The translations under genes and the position numbers were made by a program. 11,761 nt of DNA. Origin: a virus (lineage: Duplodnaviria > Heunggongvirae > Uroviricota > Caudoviricetes). Shown one piece after another: positions 1 through 11,761 of this stretch; position 1 is the first letter of the stretch; each line of letters begins with the position of its first letter. The notes beneath the pieces were generated by a model that had not been told where the DNA came from, did no database searches, and was given only the letters and a program-made list of their open reading frames with translations. The stretch covers positions 1 to 11,761 of IMG/VR virus record IMGVR_UViG_2585427768_000001. One strand, given 5' to 3'.

Positions 1-2283
1 GCAGGGGATCCCCTGCCGTTCGTATGAACGGCGCAAAATCGTGTTGTCGAAGTTGGCTCCATTTCCCCAGACCTGAACAAAAAATTCACCGGAGTTTTCG
101 TCGATAAATTCCCGCAATTGTAACAGTGCATCATCTAACGGGATTTCATCGGTCATAATGGCAGATTGCGCTTCGCGTGATTGCTTAAGCCACCATTTAA
201 TGGTGTCCCGATCAATGACTCCGCCAGCAGTTTCCAGATCGATAGTCTTACTAAATTCCGGTCCCATATCTCCGGTTTGCGGATCGAAAAATATTGCACC
301 TATTGAGATGATCGGGGCATCAGGATTTTTTCCCATGGTTTCAAGGTCTATCATTAGATGGTCACACGTCCTGCTGGTGGATGTGATTACGTGATGACTG
401 TTCACCTTAATTGAGTGATTTGCCGTCTCGCCAGTTTCATTATCGCTATCGTGATGCTGATTGCCGCCAGTGTTCTCCTTGTGTGGATGTTCAGCGCCTT
501 CCATTTCCTCCGGATCATCTTCCTGAACTTCAACCTGATACTCTTCATCGAATGTTTCCTGGTATGTTGCGTCGCCCATCACCGCGCCACAATCAGGGCA
601 ATTGCCGCCGCCGGTCTGACCGCAGGCGGTGCAGACTTTTTCCACTTCCTGTTGCGCCACTGGTTCAGGCTGTTTCGTTTCTGGCTCGTTTTGTAACGCA
701 TTTGGGCTGTTTTGTTCCGCTTTTTGGTAGTTCCGTTCCGATTCATGCTGGTTCTGGTTTACAGAATCGCGGGTCTGGATCCCCTTAACCCATTTCGGAT
801 CATTCGGGTCGCTAATCCCTGCAACAAATTCTCCGCGAGAGGCAGCAAGCAACTTATCGGCGTCAGGCTGGCTGATATTGGCTGCCTGCATAATTTTGTT
901 TACTTCGTCAGCGGTAACTTTTACCGGCCCTGGTTGTGCGGTCGTGTCAGATGCACCAGTATTTTGTTGTGAACCTGAGTATGTACCGTTTTTGTGGGCG
1001 AAATATTCTTCTTTCGTGATTTCAGTAGCCCCGGCAGCCAGTGCCTTATCCAGACCAGAAAGTTTGTTTGCGCGACCGTATTTTTCGCCATCCTTGTCGG
1101 TGAAGAGGAAGTAGAACGGCCCCTCACGCTCTACAGATGGTTCGACTTCCACTTTGCATTCGGTTTTTTCGTTGTCCGGAATTGCCGTTTCCACTGCATC
1201 AGTTTCTGGTACTGGCGACGAGAGAGTATCAGTTGCGCTCTGATTTCTTCCTTCATCTTCAAACACGCCCTTTGTAGTCAGGTATTCAGTAATGTATTTG
1301 TTCAGTGCCACAGGGTCTTTGTGAATGTCGATCGGACGTTCACGGACAAGGCCAAAAATAGTCTGGCGGTCGTAGCGAAGGGCATCAGGCTGTTTGCGCA
1401 TTGATGCCGAGATACGCTTCCAGTCTTCGCGGTCGTTGTCGATAACTTCATTTTTTGCCCAGCGATGGATGCTGCCGTCAATGTTTCCGGCATCCACATC
1501 ACCAGGCCAGAGAGCGTAGGCCAGTTCGTCATCCAGTGTTTTCCATGTCTGCTTGTATTCGCGATGAATGGCAGCAATGACCAGGCTGATTTTTCCTGTT
1601 GAATTTTCAGTGTGCTGTTGATTGACTCTGGCGCGGGCGAGATCAACAACAGACGTGTATTTTCCGGTTTCCTTGCGTTCACCTTCGCGACGTTTTTTCC
1701 AGATGCGCATCTCTGCCTGAATTTCGGGCCATTTGGCACCAGGCTTACATTTATGCTTAACCCACCCGATGGCATGCAGCTTAAGCTCCGGATACATGGC
1801 GTTAACATCTGGCATTTTCATCAACGCTTCAACGATATGTCCGTCGAATGTTGCCATGTCTTCCTGCAACAATTCCTGTGCGCTAATAACCATATCAACG
1901 GTGATGTTTTCACATGTGTCGAACTTAACCATGACAGCGTTCTGTACTTCAGGGGCCAGCTTGTCAAAAGTGACGTTCATCGGATCGGATTCAGTCTCAA
2001 CCGGGACAAAGGAAGCAGACTCCTCATCCCAGCGGTTTTCCTGCATATATTCAGCATCCCAGGAATCGAGGGCAGGGCGGGGTATACCGGGTTTATCCTC
2101 GCAGACAAGAAATTTATAAGCGCAGTCCTGAGCAGCCGGATAATGTTCCAGGAATTGCCAGTGAAATTTTGCGCGGGCGCGACGTTCATCACCGGCTTCA
2201 ATGGCAGTGGCTACAGCGACGGCACCTTCTTCCTTTATTGCCTGTTCGTCCGGAATGGCGGCGCAAATAAAGACTTTACTCAT
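1..2283 (-). CDS. recE: RecE-like exodeoxyribonuclease VIII family protein, N-terminal 761 codons; C-terminus lies beyond the window start
   Basis: Minus-strand frame is open from the ATG at 2283..2281 (SD GAGG 9 nt upstream on the minus strand) to position 1; I scanned every plus-strand triplet in this frame and found no tta/cta/tca. Absent from the ORF track because no stop lies in the window. Translation begins MSKVFICAAIPDEQ and contains KLLAASRGEFVAGISDPNDPKWVKGIQTRD (recalled as RecE-like), a CxxC-N7-CxxC zinc-ribbon-like motif, an acidic linker, and DEDD-type exonuclease motifs (HLMIDLETMG; NGANFDNTIL). Sits upstream of racC/kilR-position genes as in Rac. Confidence 0.7.
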   Translation of the reverse strand, partial: MSKVFICAAIPDEQAIKEEGAVAVATAIEAGDERRARAKFHWQFLEHYPAAQDCAYKFLVCEDKPGIPRPALDSWDAEYMQENRWDEESASFVPVETESDPMNVTFDKLAPEVQNAVMVKFDTCENITVDMVISAQELLQEDMATFDGHIVEALMKMPDVNAMYPELKLHAIGWVKHKCKPGAKWPEIQAEMRIWKKRREGERKETGKYTSVVDLARARVNQQHTENSTGKISLVIAAIHREYKQTWKTLDDELAYALWPGDVDAGNIDGSIHRWAKNEVIDNDREDWKRISASMRKQPDALRYDRQTIFGLVRERPIDIHKDPVALNKYITEYLTTKGVFEDEGRNQSATDTLSSPVPETDAVETAIPDNEKTECKVEVEPSVEREGPFYFLFTDKDGEKYGRANKLSGLDKALAAGATEITKEEYFAHKNGTYSGSQQNTGASDTTAQPGPVKVTADEVNKIMQAANISQPDADKLLAASRGEFVAGISDPNDPKWVKGIQTRDSVNQNQHESERNYQKAEQNSPNALQNEPETKQPEPVAQQEVEKVCTACGQTGGGNCPDCGAVMGDATYQETFDEEYQVEVQEDDPEEMEGAEHPHKENTGGNQHHDSDNETGETANHSIKVNSHHVITSTSRTCDHLMIDLETMGKNPDAPIISIGAIFFDPQTGDMGPEFSKTIDLETAGGVIDRDTIKWWLKQSREAQSAIMTDEIPLDDALLQLREFIDENSGEFFVQVWGNGANFDNTILRRSYERQGIPC

Positions 2284-2375
2284 TTTGTTTTACCTCATTA
2301 CAGATTTAAGGGTGAACAAATCCCTGCCATTGCTGGCATATAAGAATGAAACCGGATATTTATTACGGAACTGTT

Positions 2376-2567
2376 TTAAAGACCTGCCGGGATTTCGTTA
2401 TTATCCTGGTGAATAACTTTATCGACCGGGTAACAGTTACCGGGAATTTTCTGTTCGGTTGCTGCAGTCACACACTCCTGCATTGTCCTGTGAACACTGA
2501 CTGCAATATCAACTGGCTCTCCGGAAACAAGAAAAACTGTCAGAACAAGTGCAAATGCTGTATTCAT
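2376..2567 (-). CDS. Hypothetical small protein (63 aa) with hydrophobic N-terminal segment; racC/ydaE-position gene
   Basis: ATG at 2567..2565 overlaps the TGA of the upstream gene (ATGA coupling), with AGGA 8 nt upstream. Product MNTAFALVLTVFLVSGEPVDIAVSVHRTMQECVTAATEQKIPGNCYPVDKVIHQDNNEIPAGL. The track's longer 2376..2621 ORF has a poorly spaced SD. Confidence 0.5.
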   Translation of the reverse strand: MNTAFALVLTVFLVSGEPVDIAVSVHRTMQECVTAATEQKIPGNCYPVDKVIHQDNNEIPAGL

Positions 2568-2752
2568 TGCCAGCATCCTTTTTGTATCGGACGTAAACGG
2601 GCCAGCATTGAAAGAATGCATATTTTATTTAATAGCTCCCGTTCGTGTTTTCTCTTGTTAATGGCATCTTCAGTAAATACAGGGTTACTGATATTGACAC
2701 CAATTTCAAAACAACCTTCAGACGTATTAACGTTTGGTAATAACGTTTCCAT
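2564..2752 (-). CDS. Hypothetical small protein (62 aa); kilR-position gene of the leftward early operon
   Basis: ATG at 2752..2750 preceded by GAGGA with 7-8 nt spacing on the minus strand; product METLLPNVNTSEGCFEIGVNISNPVFTEDAINKRKHERELLNKICILSMLARLRPIQKGCWQ; stop overlaps the start of the next gene. Confidence 0.5.
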   Translation of the reverse strand: METLLPNVNTSEGCFEIGVNISNPVFTEDAINKRKHERELLNKICILSMLARLRPIQKGCWQ

Positions 2753-3004
2753 TATCGCGTCCTCAACAATGAATTTTGTGATGCGGTGCCTGGTGCCTCC
2801 AGGTGACGTTAACCAGTTAACAATTAACGCCGGATACAGAGAATCCACCCATAACACTGTTTTTGGTTTTAACTGTTCCGCGTGCGCTCAGCCGCATTCA
2901 CCACATCACAAAATTCACTTTAAAAAGGGCGGCAGAGCAGTCACGGAGTAAAACTGATACCGCCAAACGTCACCAGAAAATTGATAACAGAGGGCGTTGC
3001 AGCG

Positions 3005-3041
3005 GGGTTGTCACTTAAGCGTATGGTCAACCTGACAACCC
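3005..3041. repeat. Perfect inverted repeat, 9-bp arms (GGGTTGTCA / TGACAACCC) with 19-bp spacer, in a 560-bp non-coding gap
   Basis: Read directly from the sequence; no flanking T-run on either strand, so not an intrinsic terminator. Candidate protein-binding site or RNA stem-loop. Confidence 0.5.
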
Positions 3042-3314
3042 GGTGTCCTCAACGGGGGAAGAAATACCCCCGCCATACTTACCGCCGCGCCATTTCGCGG
3101 ATTGCCACAACCGGAAGCGCACGGTCGACGAAAATTTAACGACAGGCTATCTATGAACCAGCTACCTCGCCGTGCGCTTTCGCGTTATGGTCTGACTTTT
3201 CAGGGAAATATCCTTTCAGTAAACTGTCAGTGCCGGATGCTCACCCGTGTCCGGCGCACGCACTCCACCTCACCCGTGGAGAACTCCTTAATCACCAACC
3301 CTCAGGAGGGTGAA

Positions 3315-3590
3315 ATGTCGACTGAAAATGATGAAATCATTAACTCCCTGATACGCCAGATTAATAATTTTGATAAAGCATTGCAACATGCTGCGGCGCG
3401 TAGTGATATAACTCTTTTAGCAATTTCATTTCTTGCATCTGTTATGGATAAAAATGAAGTCGTACGACAGAGTCTTGTTGATTATATCGACTCGCTTCAA
3501 CCCGGCACTTTCAATCATGAGAGCTTCAATCATGAGAAAGAGCATGTTAAGTCTGTAATTAATTCTCTTATTTTGAATCAAAAGAATTAA
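3315..3590 (+). CDS. Hypothetical protein (91 aa), AT-rich gene in sieB position
   Basis: ATG 3315 preceded by AGGAGG 5 nt upstream; in frame with track ORF 3102..3590, whose upstream extension is GC-rich, Arg-rich and has no SD. Product MSTENDEIINSLIRQINNFDKALQHAAARSDITLLAISFLASVMDKNEVVRQSLVDYIDSLQPGTFNHESFNHEKEHVKSVINSLILNQKN. Contains a 15-bp in-frame tandem duplication (3510..3539). Confidence 0.6.
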   Translation: MSTENDEIINSLIRQINNFDKALQHAAARSDITLLAISFLASVMDKNEVVRQSLVDYIDSLQPGTFNHESFNHEKEHVKSVINSLILNQKN

Positions 3591-3900
3591 TGCTTTTTGT
3601 TGCAAAGTAATTTTCAAGGGGTTCTATTCGAATCCCTTTCTTTTTCATTAACAAGCCAAACCCCTTATCAATGATGTCCATTAGATCCAGGAAGTATTTT
3701 TCATGTAAATCCTGGTTATAAGAGAGCTGCTTCTCTTCGTACAGCCCGATAAAGGCTCGGCGTACGTTACCGGATATATTGTCGATGGTTTCTTTTTCTA
3801 CGGTACTCAGGTCAAGAGTCGCCAGTTGAGAGCGAACCACATTCGATGCCATTTCCTGGAATGGGACTGGTAAATCTTTAAATTCCATCGTCAACCTCAT
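3568..3900 (-). CDS. Hypothetical protein (110 aa); second gene of the leftward pL-like early operon
   Basis: Track ORF; ATG 3900..3898 overlaps the TGA of the upstream 77-aa gene (ATGA coupling); alternative start MEFKDLP 12 nt downstream. The 3' end overlaps the convergent 91-aa gene by 23 bp. Confidence 0.55.
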   Translation of the reverse strand: MRLTMEFKDLPVPFQEMASNVVRSQLATLDLSTVEKETIDNISGNVRRAFIGLYEEKQLSYNQDLHEKYFLDLMDIIDKGFGLLMKKKGIRIEPLENYFATKSINSFDSK

Positions 3901-4133
3901 CAGTCAGTGTTTCTGGTTAACCAGCGACGTGCGCCAGCTTCAGTTTTAAACGTTTTGCTTCTGGTATATGTCATCGCGGTAAACGTGCCGTCCTGGTTGG
4001 GAAACACGCCGCATACCAGAGATTCGTTGTTGCCAAGCTCGATAGTATCCATGCTGACCTCATTTCCCCTTAACGCCGGGGTAGCGGAACAAAAACCTGC
4101 TGCATAGTTATTAAAGTTGAACCCTGCCGTCAT
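3900..4133 (-). CDS. Hypothetical protein (77 aa); first gene downstream of the leftward pL-like promoter (ydaG/ydaF position)
   Basis: Track ORF; ATG 4133..4131 with GAGG 9 nt upstream on the minus strand; product MTAGFNFNNYAAGFCSATPALRGNEVSMDTIELGNNESLVCGVFPNQDGTFTAMTYTRSKTFKTEAGARRWLTRNTD. Confidence 0.5.
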   Translation of the reverse strand: MTAGFNFNNYAAGFCSATPALRGNEVSMDTIELGNNESLVCGVFPNQDGTFTAMTYTRSKTFKTEAGARRWLTRNTD

Positions 4134-4232
4134 GTTCTTACGCCTCGGGCTGGCTACTTAACCCCTGACCACTGCCTGGTAACTCGAGGTATTGCCCTGT
4201 ATTGTGTGGGACGGGATGGGTTGGTATGGGAA

Positions 4233-4276
4233 AACTATAGGAAATGCCTAATTACTTGTCAATAGGCTATGCCTAA
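4233..4276 (-). promoter_or_regulatory. Leftward pL-like sigma70 promoter with operator palindrome (OL-like)
   Basis: On the minus strand: -35 TTGACA (4262..4257), 17-nt spacer, -10 TATAGT (4239..4234). Palindrome TAGGCTATGCCTA at 4263..4275 and GCCTA half-site at 4246..4250. Segment 4255..4276 is the exact reverse complement of 4899..4920 on the other side of racR. Confidence 0.6.
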
Positions 4277-4370
4277 TAATTTGGGCGCAACCTAATAGGT
4301 GATGGTTTGTGGGAGAGGTAGTAGGAGTTAACTAACGGGAACTAGGAATTTCCCGTCGGACCATATAAGT

Positions 4371-4847
4371 TTAAGTTCCTGTCTTGGTGATGTTCTGGCT
4401 TTTCCGTTTTGATTCTTGATTTTTCAGATAGTTAGCTACCTTCATTTCCATTGCGGCAATGTAGGCGCGAACGTCATGATCAACCCAACTAGGCTCCGTA
4501 GCATTTCCAGATAAGATGAAAGCCACAATTGCTCTTTTTTCATCAGAGGCGGCTTGATAAAGGCTGTTTATGTCTAAAAGTTCACTTTTTGTATCTGAAG
4601 TGGATGGGGTTGGTATGGGGTATTCGTTAAGCCCCCAATGCTCTGGACCAACCACATCAGAAAAGAAACGCCATAGTTCTGGAAGTTTGTCTTTACTTAT
4701 CGAACCTTTCTTAATCCAGTCATGGATTGATGGTGGTTGGACTTTGAAATGACGTGCGATTTCCGCCTTTGATTTGACGGCTCCTGATGCAATTTTTTTG
4801 TTAATGGCCTGCTCTATCGCTCGGCCTAAGTCTTTACCACTAAGCAT
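4371..4847 (-). CDS. racR: Prophage repressor, RacR-like (158 aa, HTH)
   Basis: Track ORF MLSGKDLGRAIEQAINKK...; HTH-like segment KSKAEIARHFKVQPPSIHDWIKKG; divergent from the ydaS/ydaT-like genes, flanked by operator repeats. Size and organisation match Rac racR from memory, not verified by search. Confidence 0.7.
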   Translation of the reverse strand: MLSGKDLGRAIEQAINKKIASGAVKSKAEIARHFKVQPPSIHDWIKKGSISKDKLPELWRFFSDVVGPEHWGLNEYPIPTPSTSDTKSELLDINSLYQAASDEKRAIVAFILSGNATEPSWVDHDVRAYIAAMEMKVANYLKNQESKRKSQNITKTGT

Positions 4848-4898
4848 TGCTTAATAGTCTCCTATGCGCATCGCGTTAGGCAATCCCTACTCTCGATG

Positions 4899-4944
4899 TA
4901 TTAGGCATAGCCTATTGACAATTTCATTAGGCTAAGCCTAATAT
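4899..4944 (+). promoter_or_regulatory. Rightward pR-like sigma70 promoter with two operator palindromes (OR-like)
   Basis: -35 TTGACA 4915..4920, 18-nt spacer, -10 TAATAT 4939..4944. Palindromes TAGGCATAGCCTA (4902..4914) and TAGGCTAAGCCTA (4928..4940), centres 26 bp apart, overlapping the -35 and spacer. Confidence 0.6.
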
Positions 4945-4971
4945 TGTTGCGTGTTTTTTGGAGTTCATTCG

Positions 4972-5295
4972 ATGAAAAAAGATAACTATTCATTCAAACG
5001 AGCTTGTGCTGTTGTCGGTGGGCAATCAGCAATGGCTAGGCTTTTAGGTGTATCTCCTCCAAGCGTAAATCAATGGATCAAAGGTGTACGTCAGTTACCT
5101 GCTGAGAGATGTCCTGCGATTGAACGAGCAACAAAAGGTGGTGTCCTGTGTGAAGAACTTCGTCCTGATGTTGATTGGACATACTTACGACGCTCGTCAT
5201 GTTATTCGCAGAATATGTCGATGAAGCAACCAAATGACGAAAACGATCATACCCGAAGCATCAAGAGGCAAATGATTCATGAAAATCAAACATGA
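4972..5295 (+). CDS. ydaS: Cro/YdaS-like HTH protein (107 aa)
   Basis: ATG 4972 with GGAG 8 nt upstream; in frame with track ORF 4951..5295. Product MKKDNYSFKRACAVVGGQSAMARLLGVSPPSVNQWIKGVRQLPAERCPAIERATKGG... has the YdaS/Cro-like HTH pattern; first gene from the pR-like promoter. Confidence 0.7.
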   Translation: MKKDNYSFKRACAVVGGQSAMARLLGVSPPSVNQWIKGVRQLPAERCPAIERATKGGVLCEELRPDVDWTYLRRSSCYSQNMSMKQPNDENDHTRSIKRQMIHENQT

Positions 5296-5704
5296 GCACA
5301 TCCGCATGGCGATGAATGCCTGGGCATACCCTGATGGTGAGAAAGTTCCTGCAGCTGAAATAGCCCGGACTTATTTCGAACTGGGGATGACGTTCCCTGA
5401 ACTGTACGACGACAGCCATCCGGAAGCCCTGGCCCGTAATACCCAGAAAATTTTCCGTTGGCTGGATAAAGACACCCCTGATGCTGTTGAAAAAATGCAG
5501 GCTCTGTTACCGGCGATCGAAAAGGCGATGCCGCCTTTGCTGGTGGCCCGTATGCGCAGCCACAGTTCTGAATATTACCGTGAGATCGTCGAACGGAGGG
5601 ATCGGCTGGGGAAGGATGTCGATGATTTTGTTGCGTCAGCGGTTGTTTTGTATGACCAGATGAATCGCGGCGGCCCGGCAGGGAATGCTGTGGTGATGCA
5701 CTAA
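5279..5704 (+). CDS. ydaT: YdaT-like protein (141 aa)
   Basis: Track ORF MKIKHEHIRMAMNAWAYPDGEKVPAAEIARTYFELGMTFPELYDD...; overlaps the 3' end of the ydaS-like gene by 17 nt; position and size match Rac ydaT. Confidence 0.65.
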   Translation: MKIKHEHIRMAMNAWAYPDGEKVPAAEIARTYFELGMTFPELYDDSHPEALARNTQKIFRWLDKDTPDAVEKMQALLPAIEKAMPPLLVARMRSHSSEYYREIVERRDRLGKDVDDFVASAVVLYDQMNRGGPAGNAVVMH

Positions 5705-8585: not shown

Positions 8586-8796
8586 AAACGGTTTGCGGGA
8601 AAAGGAGAGTTAAGTAGAATTGCAGCGGGTGCTTGAGGCTATCTGTCTCAGGCATGAACACCAAAAGGCAGATAGAGAAAAGCCCCAGTTAACATTACGC
8701 GTCCGGCAAGACGCTTAACATTAATCTGAGGCCATATCTATGCTCTACACACGTAGGTTAGCCTCTTACGTGCCGAAAGGCAAGGAGAAGCAGGCT

Positions 8797-8952
8797 ATGA
8801 AGCAGCAAAAGGCGATGCTAATCGCCCTGATCGTCATCTGTTTAACCGTCATTGTGACGGCACTGGTAACGAGGAAAGACCTCTGCGAGGTACGAATCCG
8901 AACCGGCCAGACGGAGGTCGCTGTCTTCACAGCTTACGAACCTGAGGAGTAA
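8797..8952 (+). CDS. hok: Hok/Gef-family type I toxin (51 aa), HokD/RelF-like
   Basis: Product MKQQKAMLIALIVICLTVIVTALVTRKDLCEVRIRTGQTEVAVFTAYEPEE matches the Hok family signature; AAGGAG 9 nt upstream of ATG 8797. An in-frame upstream ATG at 8740 with its own GAGG SD gives the track's 70-aa form. Confidence 0.85.
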   Translation: MKQQKAMLIALIVICLTVIVTALVTRKDLCEVRIRTGQTEVAVFTAYEPEE

Positions 8953-9196: not shown

Positions 9197-9556
9197 ATGG
9201 CACTCACTGAATTCGGTAAGGCCGTTAGAAAAGCGAGGATCGATACTGACAGTACTCTTCTGACTATGTCTCAAGAACTGGGCACTACGCCAGCGTTTCT
9301 TAGCGGTTTAGAAACTGGTAGCAAAAAAATACCTCTGAAGTGGGTTAAGAAGATTGATTCTTACTTCAAGGCCAAAGGTGTAGAAATTGAAGGGTTACAG
9401 GAGCTAGCGGCAGTTGCGAATGACTCAGTTCCAGTAAACGGTTTGTCTCAGCAACAGAAAATGCTTGTAGCGGGATTCGCTAAGTCGCAGTTTACGCCGG
9501 AACAGCTAAAGAGTTTTGCAGATTTATTGCAAAAGATTAATAACAATGAGGGGTAA
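9197..9556 (+). CDS. XRE-family helix-turn-helix transcriptional regulator (119 aa)
   Basis: ATG 9197 with GAGG 8 nt upstream; N-terminal HTH_3-like segment LTEFGKAVRKARIDTDSTLLTMSQELGTTPAFLSGLETG followed by an extension of about 60 aa. Confidence 0.75.
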   Translation: MALTEFGKAVRKARIDTDSTLLTMSQELGTTPAFLSGLETGSKKIPLKWVKKIDSYFKAKGVEIEGLQELAAVANDSVPVNGLSQQQKMLVAGFAKSQFTPEQLKSFADLLQKINNNEG

Positions 9557-9558
9557 TT

Positions 9559-10035
9559 ATGTATCAAATGAGAGGTAACAGGGTGTCACCGATGCAAGAA
9601 GAAGAAATAGCCTACAGAGCTATAAACTTCTGTAATGCTATTGGTCTTACAGCCTCAAAGCGCAAAAGAAAGCGTTATGATATGTTCTTTGAAAGCCTGT
9701 CAATTTATGGGGTTACTCTTGACGTCAGGACCGACAAAGAGTGGGAGGCTCTGACGTATGATCTAACTATCGGACATTGTGACCCCGCTTCTCTAACAAT
9801 TACGGTTCCCAATAAAATATATGTGAATGCTTGCCTTGGGGAAGAGCATGCACTTGCTGTTATCTTCCACGAGCTAGGTCATTTGCTTCTTGGACACAAA
9901 GCAGTTTTACACTTTTCAGTTAAAGAACCTACTCGTATTGAGGATGCAGAATGGCAGGCAGATACATTTGCGGATATCGTACTGGAAACAATTGGCGTGA
10001 GAACACAACAGATGTCGTTCGATTTTTATATGTAA
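9559..10035 (+). CDS. ImmA/IrrE-family zinc metallopeptidase (158 aa; HExxH)
   Basis: ATG 9559 is 2 nt after the HTH gene stop, with GAGGGG 5 nt upstream; HExxH motif in HELGHLLLGH plus a downstream E/D-rich segment, typical of the ImmA/IrrE family. Confidence 0.75.
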   Translation: MYQMRGNRVSPMQEEEIAYRAINFCNAIGLTASKRKRKRYDMFFESLSIYGVTLDVRTDKEWEALTYDLTIGHCDPASLTITVPNKIYVNACLGEEHALAVIFHELGHLLLGHKAVLHFSVKEPTRIEDAEWQADTFADIVLETIGVRTQQMSFDFYM

Positions 10036-10747: not shown

Positions 10748-11291
10748 GTGCGGGTATTACTTCGACCTGTTCTGGTACCGGAACTCGGGCTGGTGATCGT
10801 TAAGCCGGGCCGTGAATCCATGCCGGTATTCCACAATACCCGGGTACTGGTGGAGCCGGAACCGAAAAGCATGCGTAATCTGTCGTCCGGGGTCGTTCCT
10901 GCCGTTCGCCAGCCGCTGGCGGAGGATAAATCATTACTGCCATTTTTCAGCGACGAACGAGTGATTCGTGCTGCTGGTGGCGCTGGCGCATTGTCTGACT
11001 GGTTACTGCGCCATGTTAAATCCTGCCAGTGGCCACACGGCGATTATCACCACAGTGAAACCGTCATTCACCGTTATGGTACCGGCGCAATGGTGTTGTG
11101 CTGGCACTGCGACAACCAGCTGCGCGACCAGACCTCCGAATCACTCGGGCAACTTGCTCACCAAAACCTGTCTGCATGGATGATTGACGTCATACGCCAT
11201 GCAATGAATGGCTCGCAGGAACGGGAATTATCGCTGGCTGAATTATCCTGGTGGGCGGTCCGCAATCAGGTGGCGGACGCGCTACCGGAAG
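10748..11291 (+). pseudogene. DUF968-like (YdfU-like) Cys/His-rich protein gene, 3' part removed by IS insertion
   Basis: GTG 10748 with GGAGG 4 nt upstream, overlapping the upstream stop; Cys/His motif CQWPHGDYHH...CWHCDNQ; the frame runs into the IS terminal repeat at 11292, so the track ORF tail after ...ADALPEV is IS-derived. Confidence 0.55.

Positions 11292-11761
<470 letters not shown>

Follow-up and report, generated by a model that had tools for sequence, protein, structure and literature searches.

Two overlapping small genes on the minus strand

Within positions 2376–2752 of the window (the whole stretch of 11,761 nucleotides analysed here, from IMG/VR virus record IMGVR_UViG_2585427768_000001), the minus strand carries exactly two coding sequences, 2752..2564 (62 amino acids plus stop) and 2567..2376 (63 amino acids plus stop), which overlap by the 4-nt sequence ATGA at 2567..2564. 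Translation of both showed that the coordinates, the sizes, and the ATGA coupling given in the original prediction are exact. The first gene encodes METLLPNVNTSEGCFEIGVNISNPVFTEDAINKRKHERELLNKICILSMLARLRPIQKGCWQ (62 aa) and the second MNTAFALVLTVFLVSGEPVDIAVSVHRTMQECVTAATEQKIPGNCYPVDKVIHQDNNEIPAGL (63 aa), each preceded by a Shine–Dalgarno-like site (GAGGA, 7 nt 5′ of the ATG of the former, and AAGGA, 8 nt 5′ of the ATG of the latter). Longer in-frame versions of 97 aa (with a GTG start) and 81 aa (with an upstream ATG) appear in a program-made list of open reading frames, but the family profiles of Pfam extend over exactly the 62-aa and 63-aa forms. The Pfam E values (9.9e-37 for DicB and 3.7e-25 for DUF1482, both full length) far exceed what would be expected of chance reading frames. 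The ATGA overlap would couple translation of the second gene to that of the first.

The first product is the cell-division inhibitor DicB (gene dicB, 2564..2752, minus strand), matching Pfam PF05358 over residues 1–62 of 62 (124.9 bits; cutoff, 27) and NCBIfam NF049927, "cell division inhibition protein DicB" (130 bits; cutoff, 100), and the gene is annotated as dicB in near-identical RefSeq genomes. The second is the DUF1482 lysis protein YdfD (gene ydfD, 2376..2567, minus strand), with a match to Pfam PF07358 (DUF1482) over residues 4–61 of 63 (88 bits; cutoff, 25) and assignment to PHROG 1092 (2e-37); both proteins of the pair have PHROG families. No NCBIfam model was matched by YdfD, for which the RefSeq names are "ydfD: DUF1482 family protein" or "lysis protein YdfD". 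DicB and YdfD are 87% and 94% identical, respectively, to the characterised K-12 proteins, so the earlier statement that neither could be matched to a known protein no longer stands; the functions given below are those of the K-12 orthologues and would apply to the alleles of the window by homology. The three cysteines that had been ascribed to the second protein belong in fact to DicB (C14, C45, and C60), YdfD having two (C32 and C45). Searches of PDB sequences with DicB and with a YdfD profile gave no solved relatives, and the PADLOC defence models had no match for DicB, YdfD, or the neighbouring orphan proteins.

In K-12, DicB binds MinC and brings it to the septal ring through ZipA, leading to depolymerisation of the Z ring and filamentation, and, also through MinC, prevents mannose uptake and the ManYZ-dependent entry of phage DNA (PMC6832061). 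The allele of the window differs from that of K-12 by eight substitutions, four of which lie within residues 55–62 and one of which is K2E, while the N-terminal METLL includes L5, which is required for activity. As K-12 DicB remains active with K2A, K2G, or K2R, needs L5, and can lose its last eight residues without loss of toxicity (PMC4967827), the retention of L5, the tolerance of residue 2, and the location of four of the eight changes in the dispensable tail indicate that the allele is probably active.

Expression of YdfD in K-12 causes rapid lysis of dividing cells (PMC8835842, PMC11430063), which is prevented by co-expressed DicB or SulA (PMC8835842; PMC11430063). The protein has been reported to target IspG of the MEP isoprenoid pathway, binding and inhibiting it, and lysis is rescued by ispG overexpression or by a pathway product; this mechanism comes from pull-down, ITC, FRET, and rescue experiments of one laboratory, without enzyme kinetics (PMC8835842). 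Homologues with 36–50% identity are found with the frame intact in phages of Klebsiella, Salmonella, and Citrobacter. Among eight homologues from four genera, L7, V8, G16, C32, and C45 are invariant, and YdfD of the window keeps every invariant residue including both cysteines, a conserved pair already remarked on in the literature (PMC8835842).

Layout of the leftward operon

Upstream of dicB on the same strand, at a distance of 174 nt, lies the gene of the small RNA DicF (2927..2978, minus strand), complete with a terminator hairpin and T-run. It matches the full length of Rfam RF00039 (model positions 1–52 of 52; 76.7 bits; gathering score, 48) and is identical in alignment to K-12 dicF, the product of which base-pairs with ftsZ mRNA and represses its translation (PMC6832061). 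The intervening leader (2753..2926, minus strand) is conserved across kil cassettes, its 174 nt being ~80% identical to the leader between kilS and kilR of K-12 Rac, with the similarity ending around the start codon.

The operon would begin at a leftward promoter and run through a DUF1391 gene, a gene for a 106-aa protein, DicF, the leader, dicB, ydfD, and an exonuclease gene, in this order. The DUF1391 gene (3900..4052, minus strand; Pfam E value, 9.3e-28), with its start taken as annotated in RefSeq for the near-identical strain JKHS016, encodes a protein 88% identical to YdfA and 84% identical to YdaF. The hypothetical 106-aa protein (3568..3888, minus strand) belongs to PHROG 6937 (1.2e-65; function unknown) and has no match in Pfam, NCBIfam, or PADLOC; blastn of the region 3300–3920 against Qin and Rac of K-12 found no match. 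Downstream of ydfD, the exonuclease gene (1..2283, minus strand) is represented by its 5′ 761 codons and runs off the window. The C-terminal part of this product contains a Pfam Rv2179c-like 3′–5′ exonuclease domain (7.4e-42), and a stretch of 367 aa is 40% identical to RecE, so that the protein is chimeric relative to RecE. In close relatives the exonuclease gene is followed directly by xis and int, without recT, and the prophage adjoins ompW.

A plus-strand open reading frame of 91 aa (3315–3590) lies antisense inside the operon, in the slot of Rac sieB. It starts right where the homology to Qin stops, has a strong AGGAGG site 5 nt before its ATG, and is accompanied by a terminator-like hairpin at 3616–3638 (plus strand). 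RefSeq gives a longer, 145-aa hypothetical form. The 91-aa product, without a match in Pfam, NCBIfam, PHROGs, or PADLOC, could be that of a moron or exclusion gene.

RacR-type immunity region and candidate operators

The immunity region on the upstream side of the operon is of the Rac type. The repressor gene (4371..4847, minus strand; 158 aa) scores 246.3 bits against the NCBIfam RacR equivalog (cutoff, 200), and its product is 91% identical to K-12 RacR; YdaS shares 85% identity with YdaS of K-12, and positions 4065–5302 share 86% DNA identity with Rac. Downstream of the repressor gene, a candidate leftward (PL-like) promoter with near-consensus elements (TTGACA-17-TATAGT, 11 of 12 positions, at 4262..4234 of the minus strand) is overlapped by three operator-like palindromes, TTAGGC-N3-GCCTAA, at 4237, 4262, and 4281, the whole element spanning 4234..4297. 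A second, OR-like cluster in the divergent region between racR and ydaS (4876..4941) contains palindromes at 4876, 4901, and 4927, which overlap a promoter-like site on the plus strand (4915–4944). These six sites in two clusters compare with 0.33 expected in the window, and none of 200 shuffled sequences reached six. In addition, a 23-nt stretch of the leftward cluster is an exact inverted copy of 4899–4921, and K-12 Rac carries the same two clusters.

The K-12 operon has the promoter dicBp, which DicA represses (PMC10448788), and further promoters are placed upstream of dicF and dicB (RegulonDB-derived; PMC11430063). DicA is absent here, and the RacR-type repressor is present instead. Binding of RacR to multiple operators in the racR–ydaS intergenic region of Rac has been published (PMC11879457). 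Based on the RacR equivalog match, the palindromes shared by both promoters, the corresponding clusters in Rac, and this published binding, we infer that the RacR-type repressor silences DicF, DicB, and YdfD through the OL/OR-like candidate operators. Silencing of the module would then fall to the RacR-type repressor next to it and not to DicA, through the three predicted operators over the leftward promoter, and findings on the loss of RacR in such strains, with prophage induction and toxicity, would concern DicF, DicB, and YdfD and not KilR.

Comparison with the Qin and Rac prophages

The arrangement resembles the dicBF operon of the K-12 Qin prophage (ydfABC-dicF-dicB-ydfD-ydfE), which likewise consists of a DUF1391 gene, dicF, a leader, dicB, ydfD overlapping it by 4 nt, and an exonuclease gene. 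Positions 1517–3300 of the window, corresponding to the part of Qin from just after ydfC through dicF, dicB, and ydfD to the ydfE remnant, share 96.4% DNA identity with K-12. Outside this stretch the two differ considerably: the repressor and operators are RacR-type in the window and those of DicA/DicC in Qin; ydfB and ydfC are replaced in the window by an unrelated 620-bp segment containing the 106-aa gene and the plus-strand 91-aa reading frame; and the exonuclease gene is intact in the window, whereas its K-12 Qin counterpart is the pseudogene ydfE, cut by IS2. From these data the pair is, with high probability, dicB and ydfD, which close the series of small genes in a dicBF operon of the Qin type, an operon that forms the early-left (PL-like) unit of transcription in a lambdoid prophage. 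Two features that may limit how much transcription arrives at dicB and ydfD count against this explanation, namely the terminator that ends DicF and the plus-strand reading frame between the promoter and dicF.

The kil region of Rac (kilS-kilR-ydaE-racC) has the same type of immunity, with the same palindromes at the left and right promoters, and the same layout of slots, in which a small RNA and a homologous leader precede a small division inhibitor, an overlapping small second gene, and an exonuclease gene. In the window, the positions of kilS, kilR, and ydaE are taken by dicF, dicB, and ydfD, respectively. The assignment of the pair to the Rac kil position, made in the original prediction, is borne out: the RacR-type neighbour, the identity of YdaS, and the kilR-like leader, conserved up to the ATG, together place dicB in the kilR slot. 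By analogy with its K-12 orthologue, DicB is a Z-ring antagonist in that slot, as KilR is. The proteins themselves are unrelated, with KilR (73 aa) showing no detectable similarity to DicB, and the zinc-binding YdaE (56 aa) none to YdfD. Permissive BLASTP against K-12 KilR, YdaE, and RacC gave a best E value of 7.8 (YdfD to KilR) and zero matches of DicB to any of the three, in agreement with the earlier view that neither protein is one of them, and identity of the pair with the Rac kil proteins was ruled out on this ground. Furthermore, the window has no equivalent of racC, and RecE/RecT of Rac are replaced by the exonuclease with the Rv2179c-like 3′–5′ domain.

The occupation of the kilR slot behind a Rac-type immunity region, with no similarity to KilR, YdaE, or RacC, would by itself agree with a host-interaction pair unrelated to known proteins, as had been suggested at first. 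This possibility retains almost no probability in view of the curated full-length family matches, the 87% and 94% identities to K-12 DicB and YdfD, which already refute it, and the 96% DNA identity to Qin. Identity to Rac products, which would have made the pair ordinary, is lacking; the plain identity with products of Qin takes away the novelty to the same degree. Both genes, named in RefSeq, are Qin-type genes that have been studied experimentally (PMC6832061, PMC4967827, PMC8835842). Indeed, dicB, ydfD, and dicF are all already known: they have been characterised, most E. coli genomes contain them, and standard annotation gives them the correct names. As a discovery the pair therefore matters little, and its modest value lies in the context, a toxic dicBF-ydfD module wired behind a Rac-type immunity switch.

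Distribution among E. coli genomes and phages

Of 5426 complete E. coli genomes, 3826 (~70%) contained a match to a 901-nt query around the pair at a coverage of at least 80%, and the junction of the Qin-type dicBF module with Rac-type immunity was found in 74. The same dicF-dicB-ydfD-exonuclease-xis-int block is carried by the viable lambdoid phage mEp460, with 99.1% identity and an identical YdfD, and by Tritos, PhiR42_1, and other phages. Unlike the window with its RacR-type repressor, mEp460 has a repressor of the C2/DicA type, and in strain 55989 the dicBF block is likewise joined to C2/DicA-type immunity. Placement of a Qin-type dicBF-ydfD module behind Rac-type immunity is thus routine lambdoid mosaicism. 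The PPompW prophages share with close relatives of the window the integration site at ompW, and they carry diverged alleles, with a YdfD 50% identical and a DicB that differs in the C-terminal half.

It could be argued that the pair consists of inert leftovers of a cryptic prophage in decay, with expression or function already lost, since the K-12 module sits in the defective Qin prophage and an IS3-family element cuts a downstream phage gene in the window. We consider this very improbable: both reading frames are intact and preceded by ribosome-binding sites, YdfD matches that of the viable phage mEp460 with 100% identity, the block is kept in the ~70% of genomes mentioned above, and the K-12 copies are potent when expressed (PMC6832061, PMC8835842).

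Outside E. coli, phages of Salmonella, Citrobacter, and Klebsiella have a DUF1482 gene just upstream of the exonuclease gene and overlapping the preceding reading frame (neighbourhoods compared in phage sequences L009, 1391–1856; L010, 1391–1856; and L008, 1301–1698). The preceding frame is not DicB, but an unrelated frame of 66 aa in Salmonella and Citrobacter phages and of 37–40 aa in Klebsiella phages; the latter was tried as a mini-DicB and ruled out, as no alignment was obtained. From these non-DicB partners, the DicB–YdfD pairing appears to be specific to cassettes of the E. coli type. As the YdfD slot is kept across genera while the upstream partner changes, YdfD may work independently of DicB. 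In Klebsiella phages, a YdaE-like zinc-binding gene was also observed downstream of the DUF1482 gene, YdfD and YdaE co-occurring there and not replacing each other.

Hydrophobic N-terminus of YdfD

The N-terminus of the second protein is hydrophobic as originally predicted, with a run of ~13 residues at positions 3–15, TAFALVLTVFLVS. Its further description as signal-peptide-like or transmembrane is weakly supported at best: the run is short, the best 19-residue segment of YdfD has a Hessa-scale sum of +6.2 as compared with −4.7 for HokD encoded in the window, and a structure model has a β-strand in this region. The first five residues contain neither Lys nor Arg, leaving no basic residue ahead of the run. 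In the model (single-sequence AlphaFold; pLDDT, 67; pTM, 0.42), which is of moderate confidence and taken as a hint, residues 5–12 form a β-strand paired with residues 18–26 in a β-β-α-β fold. A textbook signal-peptide or transmembrane segment is therefore not well supported, and the modeled fold suggests that the hydrophobic residues may form a buried β-strand and not a segment in the membrane. Lu et al. take residues 1–28 as the IspG-binding domain (PMC8835842).

If YdfD instead acted from the envelope, its N-terminal run would represent a signal peptide or an anchor in the membrane, the cysteine pair a periplasmic disulfide, and lysis a result of interference with the septal wall or the lipid carrier, not of cytoplasmic IspG binding. 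The run at residues 3–15 has the length of a signal-peptide core, V-S-G stands ahead of E17, the two cysteines are invariant across genera, and the original YdfD paper of Masuda et al. in 2016 reportedly proposed membrane association. The requirement of ongoing division for lysis (PMC8835842, PMC11430063) is also compatible with such a location. We nevertheless find it unlikely, because of the missing basic residue, the unfavourable Hessa score, and the modeled β-strand, together with the findings that cysteine mutants still bind IspG and that ispG overexpression or the pathway product rescues lysis (PMC8835842).

A small RNA and leader common to kil cassettes

Comparison of the small RNA–leader regions of the window (2753–2978, minus strand) and of the K-12 Rac sequence (L004, 7231–7503, minus strand) revealed that kilS, the small RNA gene of Rac, resembles a diverged DicF, with a score (39.1 bits; E value, 1.4e-6) below the gathering score; a literature search for KilS found nothing. 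The leader of the window gave a sub-threshold match to Rfam STnc100 (38.7 bits; gathering score, 47), and sub-threshold matches to this family were also obtained with Rac, a PPompW phage, and a Klebsiella phage. The leader element is also located 5′ of the DUF1482 cassette in Klebsiella phage Kp4865-4. The DicF-like kilS, the ~80% identical leader, and the sub-threshold STnc100 matches in the window, Rac, and phages suggest a conserved scaffold of small RNA plus leader on which different kil genes get swapped.

Taken together with the preceding sections, these similarities lead us to a tentative proposal, the probability of which we place slightly below even. The kil regions of the Rac and Qin types would be interchangeable cassettes on one scaffold, composed of a DicF-family small RNA (DicF or KilS) and then an STnc100-like leader, and would be exchanged where the coding sequence of the division inhibitor starts, at its start codon. 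In the window, a RacR-type repressor rather than DicA would gate the three toxic products DicF, DicB, and YdfD, and YdfD, possibly with a buried β-strand at its N-terminus, would act without dependence on DicB. A scaffold common to the Rac and Qin kil cassettes would be a tidy example of lambdoid module exchange.

Other features of the window

A complete type I toxin–antitoxin locus of the hok/sok type is present at 8627–8952 (plus strand), with a sok RNA scoring 117 bits and a HokD-like toxin of 51 aa, the DNA for which is 97% identical to the hokD region of Qin. At 9197–10035 (plus strand), the prophage encodes a second regulator pair, consisting of a 119-aa helix-turn-helix (HTH) protein followed by a 158-aa ImmA/IrrE (Peptidase_M78) metalloprotease. 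Such a pair is typical of switches in which a protease cleaves the repressor, and it lies apart from the RacR-type immunity region. Homology to near-identical prophages ends at 11291, inside a DUF968 gene, beyond which (~11291–11761) the minus strand reads as a fragment of an IS3-family transposase gene. An insertion sequence has therefore broken into this copy of the prophage.
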